62,486 nucleotides of DNA, taken from the NCBI GenBank assembly GCA_036653755.1, contig JAVVTJ010000002.1:1-62486 (forward strand). The letters run 5' to 3'. Source of the DNA: Clostridia bacterium (GTDB taxonomy: Bacteria > Bacillota > Clostridia > TANB77 > CAG-465). A model generated the notes under the pieces. It was not told the DNA's origin. It saw only the letters and a program-made list of their open reading frames with translations, and did not search any database. Both the position numbers and the translations under genes were made by a program. Of the stretch, positions 2,958-35,668 are shown piece after piece. The stretch's first letter is position 1. Each line of letters begins with the position of its first letter.

Positions 2958-3149
2958 TTACTTGTCCATCTTTTCTGCTTTAGTAAAATAATACGTAATT
3001 ATTGCAGATGTTATAGTCATAAACGCTACTACATCAATTACACCTTTGTATGTTAAAATACAAGTTGTAATAATTACGCTTAAACTTAATATTGTTTTTA
3101 CTTTAAATAAATTAGCAATATTTTCACCTATTTTTTTTAATACTTCCAT
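2958..3149 (-). CDS. Putative holin
   Basis: 63 aa, two hydrophobic segments, charged C-terminus, located in the lysis cassette. Confidence 0.5.
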   Translation of the reverse strand: MEVLKKIGENIANLFKVKTILSLSVIITTCILTYKGVIDVVAFMTITSAIITYYFTKAEKMDK

Positions 3150-3437
3150 TTATTTCACCCCCATTTTAAAATTAAGCTCTGATATACTTTTTTCTATATT
3201 TCCACAACGCTTGTCGTGTTCAACCATAAATTCTTGCTGATTATCCATACTTTTTTGTAATAATTCTAAAGACTTTGAAGTATTACTGTTTGTATTTTTC
3301 ATTTCTTCTAAAAATTTTGTATTTTGCTCTAAAGTATCTTTAATTTTATCTTTATTCTTAAACCAATCAAAAATAAACAAGCCTATTATTACAAAGCTTG
3401 TTCCATAATTCATTATCATTTTTACTATATCTTCCAT
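3150..3437 (-). CDS. BhlA/UviB-family holin-like protein
   Basis: 95 aa. Single N-terminal TM (FVIIGLFIFDWF) followed by KNKDK and a coiled coil, as in BhlA/UviB peptides. Confidence 0.5.
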   Translation of the reverse strand: MEDIVKMIMNYGTSFVIIGLFIFDWFKNKDKIKDTLEQNTKFLEEMKNTNSNTSKSLELLQKSMDNQQEFMVEHDKRCGNIEKSISELNFKMGVK

Positions 3438-26311: not shown

Positions 26312-27412
26312 CTATTTTATTATTTTAATATTTCTGCCTAATTCTTTACAAACTTCTTCTAGTGTCATTTCTTCTGCTTTTTCTTTTCTAAAATATTCAA
26401 TATATTCTTTTAAATAATAGCTTTTTAATTTTGCAATTGATTCATAATAGTTTTTTACAAATTGTAAAGCGTATCCGTTTTGTTTAACCGCTTCTAAACA
26501 TATCTCTTCTGTTTGTTCTTCTACAAATTGTAAAGCGTATCCATCTTGTTTAACCGCTTCTAAACACATCTCTTCAGTTTGCTTTTCTACATATCGTAAA
26601 GCGTATCCATTTTGTTTAGCCGCTGCTAAACATATCTCTTCTGTTTGTTCTTCTACAAATTCTAAAGCGTCACCATCTTGTTTAACTGCTTCTAAACAGA
26701 TTGCTTCTATTTGCTCTTCTACAAATTGTAAAGCGTATCCTTCTTGTTTAACCGCTTCTAAACAGATTGATTCTGTTTGCTTTTCTACATATTGTAAAGC
26801 GTATCCAGTTTGTTTAACCGCTTCTAAACAGATTGATTCTGTTTGTTTTTTTACATATCGTAAAGCATTTCCATCTTCTTTAACCGCTTCTAAACAGATT
26901 GCTTCTGTTTGCTCTTCTACAAATTGTAAAACGTATCCATCTGTTTTAACCGCTTCTAAACAGATTGCTTCTGTTTGCTTTTCTACATATTGTAAAGCGT
27001 ATCCGTTTTGTTTAACCGCTTCTAAACATATCTCTTCTGTTTGTTCTTCTACAAATTGTAAAGCGTATCCATCTTGTTTAACCGCTGTTAAACACATCTC
27101 TTCTGTTTGTTCTTCTACAAATTCTAAAGCGTCACCATCTTGCTTTACAGCTTCTAAACAGATTGATTCTGTTTGTTTTTTTACATATCGTAAAACGTAT
27201 CCATTTTGTTTAACCGCTTCTAAACAGATTGCTTCTGTTTGCTTTTCTACATATTGTAAAGCGTATCCGTTTTGTTTAACCGCTTCTAAACAGATTGCTT
27301 CTGTTTGCTCTTCTACAAATTGTAAAGCATTTCCATATTCTTTTACTGCTGCTAAATATTTTTCTTCACTTAACTTTTCAAATTTATTCATATTATTTTC
27401 TTCTTTATTCAT
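26312..27412 (-). CDS. DUF4116-type repeat protein (14 x 22 aa)
   Basis: Unit QTE.ICLEAVKQ.GYALQ(Y/F)VE. counted 14 times in the translation. Confidence 0.65.
   Translation of the reverse strand: MNKEENNMNKFEKLSEEKYLAAVKEYGNALQFVEEQTEAICLEAVKQNGYALQYVEKQTEAICLEAVKQNGYVLRYVKKQTESICLEAVKQDGDALEFVEEQTEEMCLTAVKQDGYALQFVEEQTEEICLEAVKQNGYALQYVEKQTEAICLEAVKTDGYVLQFVEEQTEAICLEAVKEDGNALRYVKKQTESICLEAVKQTGYALQYVEKQTESICLEAVKQEGYALQFVEEQIEAICLEAVKQDGDALEFVEEQTEEICLAAAKQNGYALRYVEKQTEEMCLEAVKQDGYALQFVEEQTEEICLEAVKQNGYALQFVKNYYESIAKLKSYYLKEYIEYFRKEKAEEMTLEEVCKELGRNIKIIK
26437..27364 (-). repeat. 66-bp tandem coding repeats (about 14 copies)
   Basis: Near-identical units such as ttctacaaattgtaaagcgtatcc..tgtttaaccgcttctaaaca recur every 66 nt. 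Confidence 0.85.
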
Positions 27413-27435
27413 ACTATTTTCTCCTCCATATTTTT

Positions 27436-27774
27436 TTATATTTTTTGCATAGTTTCTACATTATACGCTTTTCCATCAAATCTATCTTTTGACTTAAATA
27501 TTCTACAATCTCTTTTATTCTGATAAACGCCATCTGATACTTCTATAAATTCGTCATCATTTAAAGTTAATTTAGTTAAATTTTGTTGTCGTAATACTTT
27601 CATTATCAAGTCTATTTCATATTCTGCTGACATTCCACTATGCCAGATTTCACAAAATTTTCTAACAATTTCTAATACATTATTGTTTATTATTTTTTGC
27701 ATATTTATTGCTTCTTTGTCTTTTCCACATTCTTTAATTAATAAATCTAATTCATACTTTGTTTTTTCTATCAT
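27436..27774 (-). CDS. Hypothetical early protein
   Basis: 112-aa ORF. No motif recognised. Confidence 0.3.
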   Translation of the reverse strand: MIEKTKYELDLLIKECGKDKEAINMQKIINNNVLEIVRKFCEIWHSGMSAEYEIDLIMKVLRQQNLTKLTLNDDEFIEVSDGVYQNKRDCRIFKSKDRFDGKAYNVETMQKI

Positions 27775-27789
27775 ACTTTATTTTCCCTT

Positions 27790-28224
27790 CTACAAATAAC
27801 TTTTTCCAAATATTTTTATAAATTTCTCTCTACTGTATTTCTTTTCAAATTGTCCTTGAGCTTGTCTTTTATATTTTTCATCTAATTTTTGATCTGTCTC
27901 TACTTTTTTATGACACTCTAAGCATATGTGTTTTAAAAAGCCATATTTGGTTGAATTATCTCTATTACTAGCTCCAAATATGTGATGTATTGTAGTTGCC
28001 TCTTTATTTCCACATATTTCACAACATTTAGAATCTTTTACAAATTCATTATATATTTTTTTATCTTTATTGCATTGTTTGGATCTCTTTTTAGATATTT
28101 TATTTATTGTAACTTTTAAAGATTTTTTTGGTTCTAATTTTTTTATATTTATTTTTCCGTTTATCTCTGATTTTTTTTTATCTTTTGGTTTAGGAAACGC
28201 TAACAATGATGTATCCATTTTCAT
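27790..28224 (-). CDS. HNH/NinG(Rap)-like zinc-finger nuclease
   Basis: LAFPKPKDKK N-terminus. CEICG..TIHHIFG..D..HICLECHKK Cys/His pattern. Confidence 0.4.
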   Translation of the reverse strand: MKMDTSLLAFPKPKDKKKSEINGKINIKKLEPKKSLKVTINKISKKRSKQCNKDKKIYNEFVKDSKCCEICGNKEATTIHHIFGASNRDNSTKYGFLKHICLECHKKVETDQKLDEKYKRQAQGQFEKKYSREKFIKIFGKSYL

Positions 28225-28457
28225 ACCTCCCTAGGTTTATATAATTTATTTGATATTTTATTTCTTGCAAGCATATGATAAGTAATTTGTCTTTCTAGTT
28301 CGTTTATTTTTTCTATATTTTTAAGTTTTTTACGTTTTTCTGTTCCTAGTTCTAAATCTAATTTTTTAATTTTAATTGTTAAATTATCATATTCGTTTTT
28401 TAATTTTATTTCTTCTAGATTCATGCCATAATCTACAGTTTCATATTTATTATTCAT
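28221..28457 (-). CDS. Hypothetical coiled-coil protein
   Basis: ORF track 28221-28514. ATG 28457 lies behind GGAGGA. Confidence 0.3.
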   Translation of the reverse strand: MNNKYETVDYGMNLEEIKLKNEYDNLTIKIKKLDLELGTEKRKKLKNIEKINELERQITYHMLARNKISNKLYKPREV

Positions 28458-28558
28458 GTTTTTCCTCCAAATTATTTTTAATTTTAATTGTAGTAGGTAT
28501 ACCACACTTATCACATATCTCTTTTACATCTTTTTTTAATTTATCTATGTCCATATCT

Positions 28559-29278
28559 CTACCTCTTTTTATAAAAATCATTTATAAGCATGGTTGTCAT
28601 ATAGCTTACTTCATTTCCTACATTTTTACCTTTCATTTTTTCATATGCTAACGTTAAATTATCTAGTGTTATATTATTTAAAACATCAATTACGTTGTTT
28701 TTATTTAGTTCTGCAATTACATTTTCAAATAGTTTTAATTGATTTTGAGCAAATTCATTTAAACCAGTTGTTTTAAAAATTCCAATTCGGCTACATATAT
28801 TATTTAATATATCATCCTCTTCTTCTAAGTCTAGGTCTGTATGTTCGTGAGATTTCTCCGGAGATTTCTCCAAAGGTATCAGTAGAGCCTTTTCAGTGGC
28901 TATTCTTCTATCTAATTTTCGTCTTCGGTCAGCTTCAGTTGAAGATTTTCCTATATAGTTTTCTATGTCTAACATAAATATAGCTCCATTATCTAATTTT
29001 TCTATAATACCCATATTAATAAATATTTCTATCGCAACTCTTACAACATCTTTATTATGTCTTGTAAGTTTTGCTATCATTTCTACACTATACGGTATTC
29101 TATCTTTATACATTAATTTTCCTTTATCCTTTAAACTCTTCAAGTAAAGTTTAAGGAGTATGTTGGAATATAAATAACCATTTTCCATACTCTCTAAAAT
29201 AACCATATCATCTGTGTCAAAAAAATTTTCTTTTAACATCAAATAAAAATATCTGCCTTTCACTTCTTCTTTATCCAT
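28559..29278 (-). CDS. Phage replisome organiser (DnaD-like N-terminal domain)
   Basis: YFYLMLKENFFDTDDM..LESMENGYLYSNILLKLYLKS..IPYSVEMIAKLT pattern of phage_rep_org_N proteins. Confidence 0.65.
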   Translation of the reverse strand: MDKEEVKGRYFYLMLKENFFDTDDMVILESMENGYLYSNILLKLYLKSLKDKGKLMYKDRIPYSVEMIAKLTRHNKDVVRVAIEIFINMGIIEKLDNGAIFMLDIENYIGKSSTEADRRRKLDRRIATEKALLIPLEKSPEKSHEHTDLDLEEEDDILNNICSRIGIFKTTGLNEFAQNQLKLFENVIAELNKNNVIDVLNNITLDNLTLAYEKMKGKNVGNEVSYMTTMLINDFYKKR

Positions 29279-29582
29279 ATATCTTCGCCTCTTTACTTAA
29301 ATATTTATTTATAAAGTATATCTGTCCTTTTCCAGTGACTTTTGTAGTAGTAGTTACTCTTACACTTTCATTTACTATTGTACTTACTTGTTTTCTTCCT
29401 AATGTATCCTCGACTTCAGTAATACTTAAGTCATCTAAATCTACCCTTTTTAATGTTTCGGTTATATTTGTTAAATTTAATATTTTACATATATCGTTAG
29501 TTACAAAATATATTTCATTTTCTTTATTAATTATTCTTATTTTTCCAAATTCTTTGTTTTCAAATATTTTTAAATTATTCAT
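29271..29582 (-). CDS. Bro-N-type antirepressor-like protein (short)
   Basis: LKIFENKEFGKIRII..EIYFVTNDICKILNL N-terminus. The C-terminus TKVTGKGQIYF resembles the end of KilAC/ANT domains, so the middle appears to be missing. Confidence 0.5.
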   Translation of the reverse strand: MNNLKIFENKEFGKIRIINKENEIYFVTNDICKILNLTNITETLKRVDLDDLSITEVEDTLGRKQVSTIVNESVRVTTTTKVTGKGQIYFINKYLSKEAKIYG

Positions 29583-29587
29583 TTTTT

Positions 29588-29620
29588 TATATCCTCCTCT
29601 TAACTTAATTTTTATCTATT
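29588..29620. repeat. ~33-bp leader repeat flanking antisense cassette A (partner 30061-30093)
   Basis: tatatcc(tcct/ccc)cttaactt(a/g)attttt(a/g)t(c/t)tatt. On the minus strand each copy is the RBS leader of an ORF. Confidence 0.6.
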
Positions 29621-29666
29621 ATTATGTTTATTTTTAAATTACTAATTATTTATCATCTTATTTTAA

Positions 29667-29695
29667 TTGAAATATTTATAAATTTATGTTATAAT
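29667..29695 (+). promoter_or_regulatory. Rightward (antisense) promoter A
   Basis: TTGAAA, 17-nt spacer, TATAAT with TGT extension. Part of a ~58-bp block (29664-29721) repeated at 31281-31339. Confidence 0.6.
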
Positions 29696-29718
29696 CATCT
29701 AAAAGTGAGGTGATATTT

Positions 29719-29955
29719 ATGCTTGAAGCTGGATTTAGTTTTGAATGTTGTCAATGTGGGCATTCAGAACATGAATTAGGTTCTGAATACTGCGAATATT
29801 GCGGTTTAAAATTATCAAACTATTGTAGTAATGCAAAATGTGTTAAAAATTATGGTGCTGATGAACCAATGCAACTCTCTCAAGACGCTCGCTATTGTAA
29901 TATTTGTGGCGAAAAATCTACTCATTATGAACATTTAATTGAAAATGCTCTTTAA
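29719..29955 (+). CDS. Double zinc-ribbon small protein
   Basis: Start ATG 29719 behind GTGAGGTGA. CQCG..CEYCG..C..C..CNICG. ORF track 29710-29955. Confidence 0.5.
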   Translation: MLEAGFSFECCQCGHSEHELGSEYCEYCGLKLSNYCSNAKCVKNYGADEPMQLSQDARYCNICGEKSTHYEHLIENAL

Positions 29956-30058
29956 TATGTTTACCACAATATTTACAATAATTACCTGAATCATATTTAC
30001 CTGTATTCTCACAATACGGACAAGTAAATATGATTTTTTCTTTTTTATTATTTTCCAT
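29918..30058 (-). CDS. 46-aa zinc-ribbon protein
   Basis: Not in the ORF track. ATG 30058 behind GGGGGGA. CPYC..CKYCG. The 3' end overlaps the plus-strand ORF by 38 nt. Confidence 0.4.
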   Translation of the reverse strand: MENNKKEKIIFTCPYCENTGKYDSGNYCKYCGKHIKEHFQLNVHNE

Positions 30059-30150
30059 AATATATCCCCCCTTAACTTGATTTTTGTTTATTTATCTGAT
30101 ATAATAGTAATATAATATTTTGATAAATTTATTATTTAGAAACGTTATTT

Positions 30151-30378
30151 TTAAACGGTAGACGTTTCTATTTTTATGTCTGTTTTTAAATCTTCAATCA
30201 ACTCTGATGCTGTATTTAATAAATCTGTTAAACTGCCTTGAGTTGCCTCTTTATTTTGCATACAATTTAATACAAAAGCATTCCAACCTAATGTATGTAT
30301 CTGTTCTATTTTTTCTAATATGCTTATTTGAATATCAGTCACTTGCTCTTGTGTAAATACCTTCTCCATATTTTTCAC
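30151..30378 (-). CDS. Hypothetical early protein
   Basis: 75-aa ORF overlapping the upstream stop by 4 nt. Confidence 0.3.
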   Translation of the reverse strand: MKNMEKVFTQEQVTDIQISILEKIEQIHTLGWNAFVLNCMQNKEATQGSLTDLLNTASELIEDLKTDIKIETSTV

Positions 30379-30662
30379 TTCCTCTCTAAAATATTATTTT
30401 CTTTTAACACTAAATACATAGTACTTGCAATGCTGTGTACCTTTTGCTCATCATCGTTTAAATCGCTATATCCCAGTTTCTCTAATATTCCATGTAAAAT
30501 TTCATGTAATAAAACTTCATTTTTTAAATCTTGTGAAATATTTTTATCTAATTTAATTGTTTGATCACAATAATCTATCTCGCCCAATAATCTTTTAAAT
30601 TTATCTATTTGTTCAACTTCTTGAATTTCATATTCTGTTGCCATTATTTTAATTTTTTCCAT
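30375..30662 (-). CDS. Mini HExxH (zincin-like) protein
   Basis: 95 aa with LLHEILHGILE. Confidence 0.4.
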   Translation of the reverse strand: MEKIKIMATEYEIQEVEQIDKFKRLLGEIDYCDQTIKLDKNISQDLKNEVLLHEILHGILEKLGYSDLNDDEQKVHSIASTMYLVLKENNILERK

Positions 30663-30668
30663 TTTTAT

Positions 30669-30953
30669 TCATCTCCTCACTTTCAATACCTGTCCTACTT
30701 CTAAACTGCTACTTTTTAAATTGTTTTCTTTTTTAATCTCAAAAATTGCCTCATTTAAATACGTGTCTGTATAATACTTATTAGCTATCTTTGTTAAGTT
30801 ATCTCCTTGTTGTACAGTATAAGTCCTGTAGCTTGTTTCTATTGGCTTGTCCTGTTTACTTGCAATATTTATCAAACTACATATTGCAATTATTAAAAGC
30901 AATAATACGAAGCATACTAGACTTACTATTTCACTATATCTTTTGTTTCTCAT
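30669..30953 (-). CDS. Membrane-anchored LysM protein
   Basis: N-terminal TM plus LysM (YTVQQGDNLTKIANKYY..LEVGQVLKV). Confidence 0.6.
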   Translation of the reverse strand: MRNKRYSEIVSLVCFVLLLLIIAICSLINIASKQDKPIETSYRTYTVQQGDNLTKIANKYYTDTYLNEAIFEIKKENNLKSSSLEVGQVLKVRR

Positions 30954-31252
30954 TTAACCACCTCTTTTATAAATAAACTATTTACTTTGCTTTTAATTGC
31001 ATTTTCTAAAATATCTCTTAACATTTCATTATCAATTTGCAAATTTTCTATTTTTCTGTTTTGCAACCAACACATAAGCGAATGTTTTTCTATTAAATTT
31101 GTATTAGGTATTTTAGGGAAGTCTGCTCTATGAAACCAAGCGTCTACTGTACTTCTTCCAAAACCGAATTTCATTACTTCTTTTATACCAAGTGTTAAGG
31201 ATACATCTTCCCAATTTTTAAATTGACATTCAGGTAATTTCATTTTTATCAC
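30950..31252 (-). CDS. Hypothetical DNA-binding-like early protein
   Basis: 100 aa. GIKEVMKFGFGRSTVDAWF looks HTH-like. Confidence 0.3.
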   Translation of the reverse strand: MIKMKLPECQFKNWEDVSLTLGIKEVMKFGFGRSTVDAWFHRADFPKIPNTNLIEKHSLMCWLQNRKIENLQIDNEMLRDILENAIKSKVNSLFIKEVVK

Positions 31253-31254
31253 TT

Positions 31255-31282
31255 CCTTTCATATACATTTTGATAATTCTTT
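31255..31282. repeat. 28-bp leader repeat flanking antisense cassette B (partner 31633-31660)
   Basis: cctttcatatacattttgataattcttt is identical at both sites. Confidence 0.8.
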
Positions 31283-31283
31283 A

Positions 31284-31312
31284 TTGAAATATTTGTAAAA
31301 TTATGTTATAAT
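31284..31312 (+). promoter_or_regulatory. Rightward (antisense) promoter B
   Basis: TTGAAA (31284-31289), 17-nt spacer, TATAAT (31307-31312) with TGT extension. Paralogue of promoter A. Confidence 0.6.
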
Positions 31313-31336
31313 TACCTCAAAAGTGAGGTGATTATT

Positions 31337-31513
31337 ATGTCAATCTGTCCTTTTATGTCTAAGCCTGATAATATACATTCAAATATAAACACTTTATGTC
31401 CTTGTATAAATTCCTGCGAACTTTACACAGGTAACGAATGTTCTTTTAAACTTATAGCAAAATCAGAATATCAATTAGCAAAACTTCTTTCTAAAGACAA
31501 TAAAAATAATTAA
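31337..31513 (+). CDS. Cys-rich small protein
   Basis: Start ATG 31337 behind GTGAGGTGA. MSICPF..LCPCINSC..C. ORF track 31328-31513. Confidence 0.45.
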   Translation: MSICPFMSKPDNIHSNINTLCPCINSCELYTGNECSFKLIAKSEYQLAKLLSKDNKNN

Positions 31514-31622
31514 TCATTTTTATAATATCAAGTGTCCTATCACTTGGTATTTTATTTTTTGCTTTACATTTTTCTAATTCATTTTTTACTATTGTTTCTA
31601 AACTCTTAATTATATCTTCCAT
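31491..31622 (-). CDS. 43-aa hypothetical protein
   Basis: Not in the ORF track. ATG 31622 behind AAAGGTGGTGA. The 3' end overlaps the plus-strand ORF by 23 nt. Confidence 0.35.
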   Translation of the reverse strand: MEDIIKSLETIVKNELEKCKAKNKIPSDRTLDIIKMINYFYCL

Positions 31623-31729
31623 TTTGTCACCACCTTTCATATACATTTTGATAATTCTTTTACTGCTTTTTCTAAATATGCTTTTCTTTACAGTTTTTAT
31701 AATTTATAAATATTCTAACTACATTAGAA

Positions 31730-31951
31730 TTATGTTTTAAAAAAAATAGATGTTTTTTCTTTAATTATTGAACATATATCTATTATTTCATCTGCTGTAA
31801 TAGGAATTTTTCCAGTTTCTTTTTTTGCATAAGTACTGGGAGATATCTTTCTTTTATATTGTTCTTTTAATATTTTAGACATATCATTAATTGATATATT
31901 CATTTTTTTTCTTTTAATTCTTACTTCAATATATTTTACTTCACTTTTCAT
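31730..31951 (-). CDS. Cro-like HTH regulator (first gene of the leftward early operon)
   Basis: 73 aa, HTH-like MSKILKEQYKRKISPSTYAKKETG, RBS AAGAGGTG, divergent from the XRE repressor. Confidence 0.5.
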   Translation of the reverse strand: MKSEVKYIEVRIKRKKMNISINDMSKILKEQYKRKISPSTYAKKETGKIPITADEIIDICSIIKEKTSIFFKT

Positions 31952-31970
31952 TTTTTTACACCTCTTTTCT

Positions 31971-32078
31971 ATTGATATTACAATTATATACTATTATTTT
32001 TGTAATGTCAATAGATTTTATTAATTTTTTTTTACATTTTTCTAATTGTAATACAATTATGTAAATTGTATTGACAAT
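31971..32078. promoter_or_regulatory. Four operator-like ATTG-N5/6-CAAT sites
   Basis: ATTGTAATATCAAT (minus strand, 31984-31971), TTTGTAATGTCAAT (31999-32012), ATTGTAATACAAT (32045-32057), ATTGTATTGACAAT (32065-32078). Sites 2 and 4 overlap the two -35 boxes. Confidence 0.5.
31983..32011 (-). promoter_or_regulatory. Leftward early promoter (perfect consensus)
   Basis: On the minus strand: TTGACA (32011-32006), 17-nt spacer, TATAAT (31988-31983). Confidence 0.65.
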
Positions 32079-32099
32079 ATAACTTGATAGTGATATAAT
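32071..32099 (+). promoter_or_regulatory. Rightward lysogeny promoter (perfect consensus)
   Basis: TTGACA (32071-32076), 17-nt spacer, TATAAT (32094-32099). Confidence 0.65.
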
Positions 32100-32130
32100 T
32101 ATCACATCAATAAAATTTTGGAGGATTTTT

Positions 32131-32472
32131 ATGACTTGTGGAGAAAAAATAAAATATTTAAGAAAAAAGTCTGATTTAACACAAACAGAACTAGCAAAAA
32201 AAGTAGGACTTCAATTTGGATCTATATCTAAATATGAAAAAGATGAAGTATCTATACCAGCTGACAATCTATCTAAAATAGCTGATATTTTTAATGTATC
32301 CACTGATTATCTTCTAGGTCGTACTGATAAACGTGAAAAAGACATTCTTGACCAGCCTTTACAAATTGCTGCATCTATGAAAGATAAAACAGCTGATTTG
32401 TCTAATTTATCAGAGGGTGATAAAGAAGTAGTTAGGCAAATGATAAGAAGTCTTAATGAAAAAAGAAAGTAG
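32131..32472 (+). CDS. XRE-family repressor (CI/ImmR-like)
   Basis: HTH_3 pattern IKYLRKKSDLTQTELAKKVGLQFGSISKYEKDE.. and STDYLLGR. Confidence 0.8.
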   Translation: MTCGEKIKYLRKKSDLTQTELAKKVGLQFGSISKYEKDEVSIPADNLSKIADIFNVSTDYLLGRTDKREKDILDQPLQIAASMKDKTADLSNLSEGDKEVVRQMIRSLNEKRK

Positions 32473-32480
32473 GCGGTTTT

Positions 32481-32894
32481 TTGTATATAGTTATTTTTGC
32501 AATAATTATTATTTGTTTATTTATATTCATAATTCTAAAAGGATATTTCAGTAATTGGAAAAGAACAGTCGATGCAGTATTATGCATATTAATTATTATT
32601 AGAGATAATAATAATAATAATAATATAGACCTTTTAACATATGATATTTTTTGCGAAGTGTTGGATAAAAAGTATAATGCTCTATTTACTGATAGAAAAG
32701 ATATTGTTAAAAATGAATATCTTTTAAATAATGAAAATAATGTTCCTTTACAATTGAATTATCTAATACTTTTATGCTTATTAATAGAAAACAACACAAT
32801 AATTCAAAAATATACAAACAACGAAATTAAATCTATAGATATATTTAATCTACTTAAATTAATAGATAAATATTTGTTAATAAAAGTACAATAA
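32481..32894 (+). CDS. Hypothetical membrane-anchored protein
   Basis: TTG start 9 nt after the repressor stop. N-terminal TM. An N6 run is encoded by an (ATA)n microsatellite near 32603-32625. Confidence 0.4.
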   Translation: MYIVIFAIIIICLFIFIILKGYFSNWKRTVDAVLCILIIIRDNNNNNNIDLLTYDIFCEVLDKKYNALFTDRKDIVKNEYLLNNENNVPLQLNYLILLCLLIENNTIIQKYTNNEIKSIDIFNLLKLIDKYLLIKVQ

Positions 32895-32966
32895 TTTTTG
32901 TATATCGGCAAAGTTCGACAAAATATTCTATAATTATATATTATACTTTAAAAAAGGAGTGATTTT

Positions 32967-33968
32967 ATGGACAAACATTTACCATTAAATTGGTTTAATT
33001 TTTATGTTTATTTTAGATTTCCTCTTGGCATAATATCTATATTAATATCTCTTGTATTTATTTGCACTAATTCAATATTATTTAGTATCAATACTGTTTT
33101 TTTAAATTTAATTTACTTATTAGTTATTTCTTTAACATATACATTAATGTTTAGAAAATCTATTAAGGGTTATTATTTTAATATTGCATTTTTACTAATA
33201 GAAACATTATATATTGTTTTAAATATAAATGTAAATATTTCTGAATATTTTTCTATGTTTTTTATATTCTTTATGATTTGGTTTTTACCAAATTATATTT
33301 ATTTTAAAAAAAGATTATATTTATTTTGTAATAATTCTAAAAATAATGAAAATCTCGAAGAAATAATTGACAAAAAGCATATAAATACTTCAGATACTGT
33401 ATATCCTCTGAAAATTGTTATACCATATATGATAATTTTTGCTATTCTTTTAATTGGTGGACTATTATTTTACTTTATTATAAATGAAAAAGATACAAAA
33501 ATATCAAATATTGAATCTAACATAGTACAACTAGAAAATAGTTTGAAAAATATAAAAATAGATAAACAAAATTTAAATAATGAACTATCTATTTTGTTTT
33601 AAAAAAACATTAATTATCAAAATGATTCTGATTTTTTAAAACAAAATATTGCCATATTACCTTGTAATAGTAATATTTTTCATAAATATGGTTCTAGTTG
33701 TTTAAATAATGTAAAAAGTTTTTATGCATATAATAATGAAACTGCTAAAGCAAAAGGATACGTAGCTTGTTCAATATGCTATTCCTCTAAATCAAAATTA
33801 GAGTTAGAATTACCTACTCAAACTGATATATCGTACACTGTATATATTACTAAAACTGGTACAAAATATCACAAAAATGGTTGTAGTTATTTAAAAAGTA
33901 AAATACCAATTGATAAAGAAGAGGCTATCGAAAAAGGGTATTCTTCTTGTAGTAGATGTAATCCATAA
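32967..33968 (+). pseudogene. Polytopic membrane / coiled-coil / double Cys-His motif protein interrupted by an in-frame TAA
   Basis: ORF 32967-33602 ends at TAA 33600-33602. The same frame stays open for 122 more codons with no ATG/GTG/TTG and encodes two (F/Y)H-K-x-G-x-x-C...GY..C..C motifs. Confidence 0.6.
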
Positions 33969-34026: not shown

Positions 34027-34479
34027 ATGTTTAGTAAAGAAGAGAATTGTATGTTAGATAAATTATATGAGATAGCAGAAAAAGAAAATATTAATATTTT
34101 TAGAGTCAAATTAGATGAACCTGAAGCTTTATATATGACTGATGGAGTCAATAGTGTTATAACTATTGATTCTAAAATAAAGGATGACTTAAATTTGGAG
34201 CGAATATTAAAACATGAACTTTCACATCATTCGGTTGGAGTATTTCCTACCAATATTTATTCACATGAATATTGTACTAGACTGTGCCACTCTAAAAACG
34301 AATTTAGAGCTGAAAAATGGTTAATTAATAAACTTATGCCATATAATGTGTTAAAGTCTTTAATTAAGCCAGATACATTTAAATATGAGGTAGCTGAAGA
34401 ATTAGAAGTAACTGAGGACTTTATTGAAAAAGCATATAATTTGTATAGAGATAAATTGAAAGGAGATTTTTATGTCTAA
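34027..34479 (+). CDS. ImmA/IrrE-family metallopeptidase
   Basis: LKHELSHH zincin motif in the usual ImmA context. Start moved to ATG 34027 because 33910-33968 belongs to the upstream frame. Overlaps int by 8 nt. Confidence 0.7.
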   Translation: MFSKEENCMLDKLYEIAEKENINIFRVKLDEPEALYMTDGVNSVITIDSKIKDDLNLERILKHELSHHSVGVFPTNIYSHEYCTRLCHSKNEFRAEKWLINKLMPYNVLKSLIKPDTFKYEVAEELEVTEDFIEKAYNLYRDKLKGDFYV

Positions 34480-35668
34480 AAAAAGAGGAAATGGTGAGGG
34501 GTCTATTTATTATTCCGAAACTTTAAAAAGATGGGTAGGACAATTTACAGCAGGAAGAAAAACAGATGGGACTATAAATAGAAAATCCGTGTATGGTAAA
34601 ACACGAAAAGAAGTAGCTGAAAAGATAAACAAATCAAATGTAGATATCAAAGAAGAGAAATTCGTGGATAAAAATGATATAACAATAGTTTATATATTAA
34701 AAGAAATTATTAACAATAAATATAATTTAAACAAAATATCTGATAGGACTTACATACGTTCTATGGAGACTGTAAAAATAATTGAAAAAAGTGATTTAAA
34801 TTTAATTCCAATACAAAAAATTACTGAGTATAATTTAACCAATTTTTTAGCGACATTAACTAATTATTCAAACTCAATTATAGATAAAGTATATTCATAT
34901 TTAGTACTGGCTTATAACAAAGCTTCGGTTTCGCAATTATTATATAACAATTTATTTTCAGATAAAAACTTAATCTTAAAACCAAAATCGTTGAAAAAGG
35001 ATAAGAATATAACTGCCTTAACAATTGAAGAACAGAAATTATTCTTAAATGAAGTTAAAAAATCTGAACATAAAAATGTATTCTTATTAGCTATTTACAC
35101 AGGAATGCGAATCGGAGAGATTTTAGCTTTACAAAAAAATGATATTGATTTAAAGAATAACCTAGTTCATATAAGTAGGACTTTAACAAAAGATAAACAA
35201 GATAAAGTTATAATAGGAGATACCACTAAAACATATGCAGGTATAAGAGATATTCCTATAAGAATTATAGTTAAAGACGTATTAAATGATGTTTTAGACA
35301 ATTATACAGACAATCAGTATAATTTACTATTTATAACAAAAAATAGTGATATTTGCACCCCTTGTTCTTTCAATAGTATTTTTAAAGAAATATGTAAAAA
35401 CGCACATATTAGAGAATCTATTTATCCATTAAAAAGAAAAGATAAAATAATTAATCTTAAAACTAGTAACGTTAATACACATATGCTAAGACATACATAT
35501 GCTACAAGATGTATTGAAGCAGGAATAAGTCCTGTTGTATTACAAAAGCTATTGGGACATAAAGACATTTCAACTACTTTAAATACCTACACATCTGTTT
35601 TCAATGAATTTAAAATTGATGAATTAAATAAAGTAGATTTATATATGAACAAAATCGGGTTGCATTAA
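34472..35668 (+). CDS. int: Tyrosine integrase
   Basis: GMRIGEILAL (Arg box), HMLRHTYATRCIEAG..LLGH..ISTTLNTYTSV catalytic region. Confidence 0.9.
   Translation: MSKKRGNGEGSIYYSETLKRWVGQFTAGRKTDGTINRKSVYGKTRKEVAEKINKSNVDIKEEKFVDKNDITIVYILKEIINNKYNLNKISDRTYIRSMETVKIIEKSDLNLIPIQKITEYNLTNFLATLTNYSNSIIDKVYSYLVLAYNKASVSQLLYNNLFSDKNLILKPKSLKKDKNITALTIEEQKLFLNEVKKSEHKNVFLLAIYTGMRIGEILALQKNDIDLKNNLVHISRTLTKDKQDKVIIGDTTKTYAGIRDIPIRIIVKDVLNDVLDNYTDNQYNLLFITKNSDICTPCSFNSIFKEICKNAHIRESIYPLKRKDKIINLKTSNVNTHMLRHTYATRCIEAGISPVVLQKLLGHKDISTTLNTYTSVFNEFKIDELNKVDLYMNKIGLH

Follow-up and report, generated by a model that had tools for sequence, protein, structure and literature searches.

An antisense double zinc-ribbon gene and its overlapping partner in the early operons of Firmicute prophages

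We analysed 62,486 nucleotides (nt) of contig JAVVTJ010000002.1 from a Clostridia bacterium (the whole stretch is called the window below), which carry a prophage. On the strand opposite to its leftward early lytic operon lies a small transcription unit, cassette A, with a promoter, a gene for a 78-amino-acid (aa) double zinc-ribbon (DZR) protein and a terminator. The 3' end of the DZR gene overlaps a convergent 46-aa open reading frame (ORF) of the early operon that encodes a single zinc ribbon (ZnR). We are nearly certain of this anatomy. Judged by comparison with other loci, the DZR/ZnR pair is an old, conserved module of temperate Firmicute phages, and it is probably an undescribed extra layer of the lysis-lysogeny switch in many unrelated members of this group. 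For the function of cassette A, we tentatively propose, at a little short of an even chance, a unit transcribed in the direction of lysogeny, with an mRNA antisense to the early lytic mRNA, such that the two would exclude each other, and a protein that would act on the immunity circuit.

Anatomy of cassette A

The rightward promoter (29667-29695, plus strand) is of the sigma-A type. It reads TTGAAA-17-TATAAT with an extended -10 TG at 29687-29688 and scores 11/12. Only four sites in 27000-33000 score at least 11/12; the cassette A promoter is one, and two others are the divergent promoters of the phage switch. The 5' untranslated region (UTR) is predicted to be only about 16 nt long, with the Shine-Dalgarno (SD) sequence GAGGTGAT at 29707-29714, 4 nt before the ATG at 29719. 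The GAGGTGAT/GGTGGTGAT motif recurs, spacing included, at two related loci (L084 and L085) and in Brochothrix phage BL3. The DZR gene spans 29719-29955 on the plus strand. Its ORF-finder start, a GTG at 29710, falls within the SD sequence; the 78-aa form is the one that gene callers predict in three other assemblies. On the minus strand, the ZnR gene (29918-30058) has an ATG start and a GGGGGG SD sequence, encodes CPYC...CKYCG, is called by gene finders and overlaps the DZR gene by exactly 38 nt. A first-pass annotation of this DNA had described the promoter, the ribosome-binding site with its 78-aa double zinc-ribbon ORF, and the convergent zinc-ribbon ORF with its overlap, and each of these is present.

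That annotation had not included a rightward intrinsic terminator inside the 46-aa ORF (29988-30055, plus strand). A 16-bp hairpin (29988-30036; arms 29989-30004 and 30020-30035) is followed by TTTTCTTTTTTATTATTTT, with a U-run at 30037-30055; its folding energy is -16.4 kcal/mol (z -5.1). The terminator lies within ZnR codons 2-24 and stops a few nt short of the ZnR start codon. Read on the minus strand, this hairpin is not followed by a U-run, so termination is expected solely for the rightward transcript. The predicted rightward mRNA is about 340 nt long and complementary over its whole length to the early lytic mRNA, its 3' third covering ZnR codons ~5-46. A covariance scan of 28500-32500 against Rfam 15 returned only a chance microRNA match (E 0.62).

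A further rightward promoter-like site, the third if cassette B (described below) is counted, lies in the ZnR leader (region 30077-30178). It reads TTGATT-17-TATAAT with a TG and scores 10/12. Behind it, a weak hairpin (30137-30170, fold z only -1.6) with a T-run overlaps the stop codon of the upstream 75-aa gene. Together these could specify a small RNA of ~65 nt resembling OOP, or a back-up terminator.

An exhaustive HMMER scan of 1.84 billion representative sequences found 75 relatives of the DZR protein (best 59% identity, E 4e-21), most of them stand-alone proteins of 65-100 aa; a word-based protein search with the 78-aa sequence matched only itself. The protein contains two consecutive Cys4 ribbons (CxxC...CxxC). 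An alignment of 17 sequences shows no variation at any of the eight cysteines (C10, C13, C25, C28, C36, C41, C60 and C63) or at G29, N34 and G64. It aligns with the Pfam DZR family (PF12773) over profile positions 1-45 of 45 (E 1.2e-4, 22.6 bits), 56 of the 75 relatives match that family at E<=1e-3, and its AlphaFold2 (AF2) model has a pLDDT of 85. When compared with DZR profiles, the ZnR product matches their first ribbon (E 2.7e-6 and 5.7e-4). DZR and ZnR alike are hydrophilic proteins of the Cys4 zinc-ribbon type.

The DZR/ZnR pair in divergent phages

We defined the module as a ~75-aa DZR gene lying antisense in an early operon together with a convergent ZnR ORF of 40-55 aa over its 3' end. 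In the window, the overlapping ZnR is accompanied by a -10 element near the DZR ATG and by the terminator hairpin in the codons of the ZnR knuckle. Nine independent loci, namely the window and L084, L085, L089, L090, L092, L099, L100 and L101, carry a stand-alone DZR gene lacking the C-terminal tail described below, and the DZR proteins of the other eight are 30-40% identical to that of the window. The DZR gene opposes a run of phage early genes in all eight further loci, making it antisense in 9/9. The convergent ORF, ~41-53 aa long, overlaps the DZR 3' end by 31-91 nt in every one of the eight; in L101 it forms the C-terminus of a 94-aa ORF. These ORFs share the motif [ILFV]-[TA]-C-x2-C-x-K-[TA]-[GSD] ... 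N-Y-C-x-[YF]-C-G, and each copy has an ATG and an SD sequence. The first-pass annotation had made its reading depend on the small ORFs being conserved as coding, and both are conserved across the divergent loci. On this comparison, we conclude that both small ORFs are genes.

The surroundings of the pair are conserved as well. Eight of 10 related loci have a perfect TATAAT 22-24 nt upstream of the DZR start codon; the distance is 34 nt in L092, and L099 has none. Wherever a repressor gene is visible (the window, L085/87, L089, L090, L092/93 and BL3), the DZR gene is co-directional with it, in line with the earlier claim that the unit runs with the repressor and against the early lytic operon, which the anatomy of the window also bears out. 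ZnR directly follows a cro-like gene in L085, L090, L092 and L099. Four DZR proteins (that of L090, and P0003, P0006 and P0069) end in PQNGQ or PQNAQ, which is the antisense reading of the ZnR motif YCPFCG, so that the overlap is evident even in members known as proteins only. The pair keeps its position across nine prophages that are very divergent, and flanking repeats (see below) occur in few of them; these data indicate that the module is old and conserved.

A variant layout is present in L099 (1318-1935), where GC content is higher. Here a two-gene antisense operon, encoding a 73-aa XRE helix-turn-helix (HTH) protein and then a 94-aa DZR protein, lies between cro-like and Bro-N genes, and a ZnR ORF still overlaps it. 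From its gene order, this unit resembles an XRE-DZR fusion protein (described below) divided into two genes.

Closer relatives were sought by several routes. Three loci (L001-L003) contain essentially the same phage as the window, with four single-nucleotide polymorphisms, all outside the cassette. A tblastn search of 50,697 phage records with the 78-aa DZR gave no match, and scans of IMG/VR with DZR, the 75-aa protein and P0002 gave nothing; none of 80 IMG/VR loci retrieved through Bro-N contains DZR. No close relative was found in a metagenome scan with P0002 or in a genome scan with the replisome organiser, and an alignment-based degenerate search for the locus found no stretch conserved enough.

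The terminator recurs with the pair. Each of the six loci that were folded has a stable hairpin with a U-run in the corresponding position (dG -10.8 to -16.4, z -3.2 to -5.9). When the nine loci were aligned codon by codon on the ZnR knuckle, the hairpin arms coincided with the codons of x-T-C and T-[GS]-x. Of the hairpin cells, 84% can pair, vs 29-50% when the partner columns are slid. Two-sided, compensatory changes occur in five of 10 pairs, and there are 15 compensatory cells vs 5.5+-1.9 after shuffling (0/500 shuffles). The flanking residues covary as reverse-complement codons: F/K (TTT/AAA), I/N (ATT/AAT), F/E (TTC/GAA), L/E (CTC/GAG) and V/Y (GTA/TAC). The second knuckle cysteine, in the loop, and the N-Y-C-x-[YF]-C-G motif, outside the hairpin, are invariant in 9/9 loci, and their codons vary. 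Because these residues are kept outside the paired arms, they point to ZnR coding, with the RNA structure as an added constraint on the same bases. The result is a clean natural case of dual coding, in which the same nucleotides must serve both a terminator hairpin and a zinc-knuckle peptide; it should be of use for the study of overlapping-gene evolution and for gene finders, which often miss ORFs of 40-50 aa such as these.

A candidate immunity module and competing explanations

The switch of this prophage is classical and divergent, with a 113-aa XRE repressor (32131-32472, plus strand) facing away from a Cro-like HTH protein (31730-31951, minus strand). Its two promoters stand back to back at 32011-31983 (minus) and 32071-32099 (plus) and both score 12/12. 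The repressor is a short XRE protein with no S24 domain, and repressors of this kind are normally controlled by ImmA/IrrE-type partners. Leftward from cro, the early operon encodes a 43-aa ORF, a 97-aa protein, a LysM protein, a 95-aa HExxH protein, a 75-aa protein, the 46-aa ZnR ORF, a Bro-N/antirepressor-like protein, a replisome organiser and, further on, a Tad3 homologue. The switch half-site TATTGAYATTACAA is present in four copies within 31970-32082; at the promoters of cassette A and of a second rightward unit, cassette B (described below), it was looked for and found in 0 copies. We therefore rejected control of the cassette promoter by CI/Cro, and this promoter is expected to fire in the lysogen.

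Other proteins with the DZR domain link it to immunity functions. Among the 75 relatives, nine join DZR to Peptidase_M78 (ImmA/IrrE-type proteins with C-terminal ZnR and DZR) and three join it to HTH_3 (XRE). An M78-ZnR-DZR gene directly follows the repressor gene in the lysogeny modules of Bacillus phage SDFMU_Pfc and Streptococcus phage Javan249, which is the ImmR-ImmA arrangement, and in Streptococcus phages Clyde and Javan291 a stand-alone DZR gene lies behind cI. P0012, an XRE-DZR protein, is a member of a family whose proteins are the main repressors of prophages; most of its relatives lack the DZR insert, so P0012 supports the XRE-DZR context only indirectly. Gene order thus places the DZR domain consistently on the lysogeny side in these genomes.

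A subset of the family ends in [DE][DE][LIM]PF, which is the motif of the C-terminal tip of bacterial single-stranded DNA-binding protein (SSB). This end is present in ~15/75 members, among them all M78 fusions whose tails were read, Clyde, Javan291 and BL3 gp40. The members with it include P0007, P0014, P0027, P0028, P0040, P0050, P0051, P0053, P0059 and P0065, and genes at L096 3501-3737, L098 ~2980-3213 and L097 2998-3219. A ZnR partner accompanies 0/3 of the tail-bearing stand-alone genes (Clyde, Javan291 and BL3 gp40) vs 9/9 of the tail-less ones. The tail suggests recruitment to host SSB-partner proteins and could be a clue to how prophage ImmA-like proteases sense DNA damage.

We propose the following sequence of events. 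In a lysogen, CI would shut the early promoter, the cassette promoter would fire and DZR protein would be made. Leaky leftward transcripts would be damped by head-on polymerase collision and by RNase III cutting of sense/antisense duplexes; head-on transcription interference and RNase III cleavage of RNA duplexes are both established in Firmicutes. Such damping would insulate the downstream Bro-N/antirepressor-like gene and the replication genes. Upon induction or infection, strong early transcription would cross the cassette, silence DZR in the same manner and yield ZnR. Judged from its domain context, the most likely binding partner of the DZR protein is a component or signal of the immunity (repressor/anti-repressor) circuit, because the domain also occurs in M78 proteases, in XRE repressors and in a gene after cI. 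ZnR, which resembles half a DZR, may titrate, antagonise or partner it.

Several observations weigh against this proposal. The activity of the promoter in lysogens, the termination and the RNA duplexes are predictions from sequence, and the link to the immunity circuit comes from domain co-occurrence. The Pfam score of the DZR protein is under the gathering threshold of the family (27.3 bits), and a fold search of the PDB with its model found no informative neighbour (best E 0.57). The DZR gene of L099 stands behind an HTH gene and has neither a -10 of its own nor a U-run. Of the three tail-bearing, ZnR-less DZR genes, two are antisense to nothing. These genes imply a protein function independent of the antisense layout, and the RNA-level role may be secondary.

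A broader and more speculative version, which we think unlikely, is that DZR/ZnR forms a widespread and so far undescribed second toggle in temperate Firmicute phages, a dual-coded convergent pair directly behind cro. Mutual antisense exclusion would then control when immediate-early expression (cro-ZnR) gives way to delayed-early expression (antirepressor, replication); DZR would be the domain by which ImmA-type proteases and XRE repressors sense a signal or bind a partner, here as a protein of its own, and ZnR would oppose it in the lytic phase. Lysis-lysogeny control by short XRE repressors in phages of Gram-positive bacteria is far less understood than that of lambda. The module bears on two questions in this field, namely how ImmA-type proteases sense their signals and what stops leaky early transcription from setting off antirepressors. 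Its position, its recurrence in unrelated phages and the domain it has in common with both a protease and a repressor make it a compact, genetically accessible way into both; an RNA role could be told apart from a protein role with mutants of the promoter, the start codon and the hairpin.

Among known systems, we place cassette A with the cis-antisense control units of phage immunity regions. Its closest analogues in function include OOP RNA and cII of lambda and sar RNA and ant of P22, where a short transcript with its own promoter runs against the early operon and covers part of a regulatory gene, either at its 3' end or around its start. OOP and sar are thought to lower expression of their targets through RNA duplexes; the target in P22 is an antirepressor, and here a Bro-N/Ant-like gene is immediately downstream. 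Unlike the non-coding OOP and sar, the transcript of cassette A is the mRNA of a conserved protein, and its target is a tiny zinc-ribbon gene with the terminator within its zinc knuckle; the hosts are Firmicutes, and there is no sequence relationship. Face-to-face units with exclusive expression through transcriptional interference and antisense RNA are also found in pR-pL of coliphages 186/P2, in prgQ-prgX of Enterococcus pCF10 and in the Listeria excludon; for cassette A, such behaviour is predicted from sequence. The long mRNA of an excludon also serves as antisense RNA to the operon next to it (PMC7154746). In those systems the partner is either the gene of the main repressor or an operon for flagella or metabolism, whereas cassette A is an extra unit downstream of a classical divergent cI/cro switch. 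Like the morons of lambdoid phages, cassette A is an autonomous promoter-ORF-terminator unit within an operon that a lysogen keeps silent. Host-fitness genes are the usual content of classical morons, which differ from one close relative to the next, whereas this unit has a conserved position in distant phages, an obligate overlapping partner and a domain in common with immunity proteins. At the protein level, the comparison is with ImmR/ImmA of ICEBs1 and IrrE/DdrO (COG2856, Peptidase_M78), given that DZR is the C-terminal module of some phage ImmA-like proteases encoded right after an XRE repressor. Unlike those proteases, the 78-aa protein has no peptidase or HTH domain; the M78 catalytic domain with its HExxH motif is absent from both the 78-aa and the 46-aa proteins, and the part in common is the accessory DZR domain only.

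Only two members of the family, both annotated as hypothetical, were found in deposited phage genomes: gp40 of Brochothrix phage BL3 and CDS0032 of Streptococcus phage Clyde. As in the window, BL3 gp40 is antisense in the early operon and co-directional with the repressor gene (gp32), and it has TGgTATAAT 22 nt before its ATG. Both differ from the window gene in bearing the SSB-like tail (GMPF in BL3, DEDLPF in Clyde) and in having no overlapping ZnR, and the Clyde copy lies in the lysogeny operon after cI. The module is not named in Pfam (above threshold), NCBIfam, PADLOC or Rfam, PHROGs contains it only as families of unknown function, and full-text searches of the literature brought up no paper on the DZR/ZnR pair or on a phage DZR protein. 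Listeria AriS (PMC9043618) was considered and set aside as an unrelated AntA/KilAC protein. What appears new relative to all of these analogues is an antisense RNA that is itself the mRNA of a conserved protein, an overlapping paralogous mini-gene as partner, a dual-coded terminator, and a domain in common with ImmA-type proteases and repressors.

The first-pass annotation had also noted that two copies of a 33-nt leader flank the unit, and these copies are real. The left one (29588-29620, minus strand) contains the ribosome-binding site and leader (AAGTTAAGAGGAGGATATA) of the Bro-N/antirepressor-like gene (29271-29582), and the right one (30061-30093, minus strand) those of the ZnR gene (AAGTTAAGGGGGGATATA). 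They are identical at 28/33 positions with one 1-nt gap. Their local alignment score of 22 exceeds all 1128 pairs of other SD-containing gene leaders in the window (mean 9.0, standard deviation 2.5, maximum 19), so the similarity goes beyond an SD sequence and AT-richness. The same design recurs in cassette B (31244-31663, plus strand), which has a promoter, a 58-aa ORF, a terminator and leader repeats. Its promoter (31284-31312) differs from that of cassette A at two of 29 nt, and the 5' UTR motif AAAAGTGAGGTGAT is identical. The ORF (31337-31513) is Cys-rich and has no family match; the terminator (31524-31551, z -5.0) lies within a convergent 43-aa ORF (31491-31622); and the direct leader repeats (31241-31283 and 31620-31662) have an exact core of 28 nt.

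These repeats bear on the suggestion, made in the first-pass annotation, that the unit was inserted or duplicated by recombination between leaders. In its full form, this explanation holds that cassette A was acquired or duplicated recently through its ~33-nt leaders, that the repeats mark its ends and that it could be excised in the same way. The leader score, the common promoter and 5' UTR of the similarly bracketed cassette B, and a 15/16 leader match in L090 speak for it, and the design common to both cassettes favours moving or duplication by recombination at leaders in this phage lineage. However, the leaders of cassette A have already diverged (85% identity), flanking similarity is missing in seven of the eight related loci (scores 8-10), the pair keeps its place in the nine divergent prophages, and no empty-site relative was found in any collection searched, the only close relatives being near-identical copies. 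Because most relatives have no repeats, the repeats concern local history and not the definition of the module. We thus retain the repeats and regard a recent origin of the unit through them as doubtful; it would in any case address where the unit came from and be silent on function. The chief functional alternative, which we judge unlikely, is that cassette A is an accessory moron. DZR would then be cargo expressed in the lysogen (for superinfection exclusion, anti-defence or host manipulation), possibly directed at host SSB-partner proteins and uninvolved in the switch; it would be antisense only to allow expression from the prophage, and the ZnR overlap would reflect compaction. A promoter and terminator around a single ORF, as assigned by consensus and folding, are the classic design of a moron, the early region has other accessory genes such as the Tad3 anti-Thoeris homologue, and the SSB-like tail suggests targets among host SSB-partner proteins, not phage regulators. 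Random cargo would not be expected to sit beside cro or to be fused to ImmA-type proteases and repressors, however, nor would compaction readily account for an overlap, an embedded terminator and a ZnR partner kept in 9/9 tail-less loci at 30-40% identity, and PADLOC gave no match.

Two further explanations concern the overlap itself. The 46-aa ORF might be a chance open frame over the terminator and 3' region of the DZR gene, its conservation being due to the hairpin. The conserved [ILFV]-T-C and T-[GS]-x are indeed coded by the hairpin arms and covary as reverse-complement codons, and the Lys-rich N-terminus is the complement of the U-run. A hairpin would not, however, preserve the loop cysteine and the N-Y-C-x-[YF]-C-G motif outside it with differing codons, nor would it provide an ATG and SD sequence in every copy, predictions by independent gene callers and a match to the first-ribbon profile of DZR. 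We consider it very improbable that ZnR is not a gene. An addiction module resembling type I toxin-antitoxin pairs, with convergent transcripts overlapping at their 3' ends and one toxic product, deserves equally little credence. Such pairs include bsrG/SR4 and txpA/RatA, whose transcripts overlap at their 3' ends. The layout of small convergent, 3'-overlapping prophage genes fits the Bacillus prophage loci, and a strong, constitutive-looking promoter drives one partner. The products are hydrophilic Cys4 ribbons and not small hydrophobic membrane peptides, however, the antisense partner is not a non-coding antitoxin and instead encodes a protein with 75 relatives, and ZnR has no promoter of its own and belongs to the early operon.

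Other features of the prophage

The window is an AT-rich contig with a host SipL sporulation gene at 44826-46361. The prophage extends approximately from a tRNA-Arg(TCT) gene (81-157) to a tyrosine integrase gene (34472-35668). Adjoining the tRNA gene, a 213-aa protein (506-1147) has a C-terminal PemK/MazF toxin domain. The 112-aa product of an early gene at 27436-27774 matches Pfam Tad3, an inhibitor of type I Thoeris, above threshold (E 1.3e-25), and is an anti-defence gene of the same early operon. Beside it, a 366-aa protein (26312-27412) consists almost entirely of ~22-aa tandem repeats (EEQTEEICLEAVKQNGYALQFV...), whose DNA copies are ~84-89% identical.

The 95-aa early protein (30375-30662) has a HEILH motif. 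It matches phrog_1233, a family of unknown function (E 1.4e-19), and its matches to metalloprotease PHROGs are weak. Pfam does not detectably place it in M78, and no canonical M78 gene was recognised in the window. We considered whether this protein, the 75-aa protein, ZnR and an inverted DZR are pieces of one M78-ZnR-DZR protease gene, and rejected this idea. A profile of seven M78-ZnR-DZR fusions matches DZR (4e-18) and ZnR (2.7e-6) only and not the 95-aa protein, and homologues of the 95-aa protein in three metagenome-assembled genomes of Clostridia (L105-L107) occur with neither DZR nor ZnR, both of which count against a split gene. These homologues are 72-73% identical to the 95-aa protein, and their early regions are otherwise unrelated, which illustrates the mosaicism of these phages.

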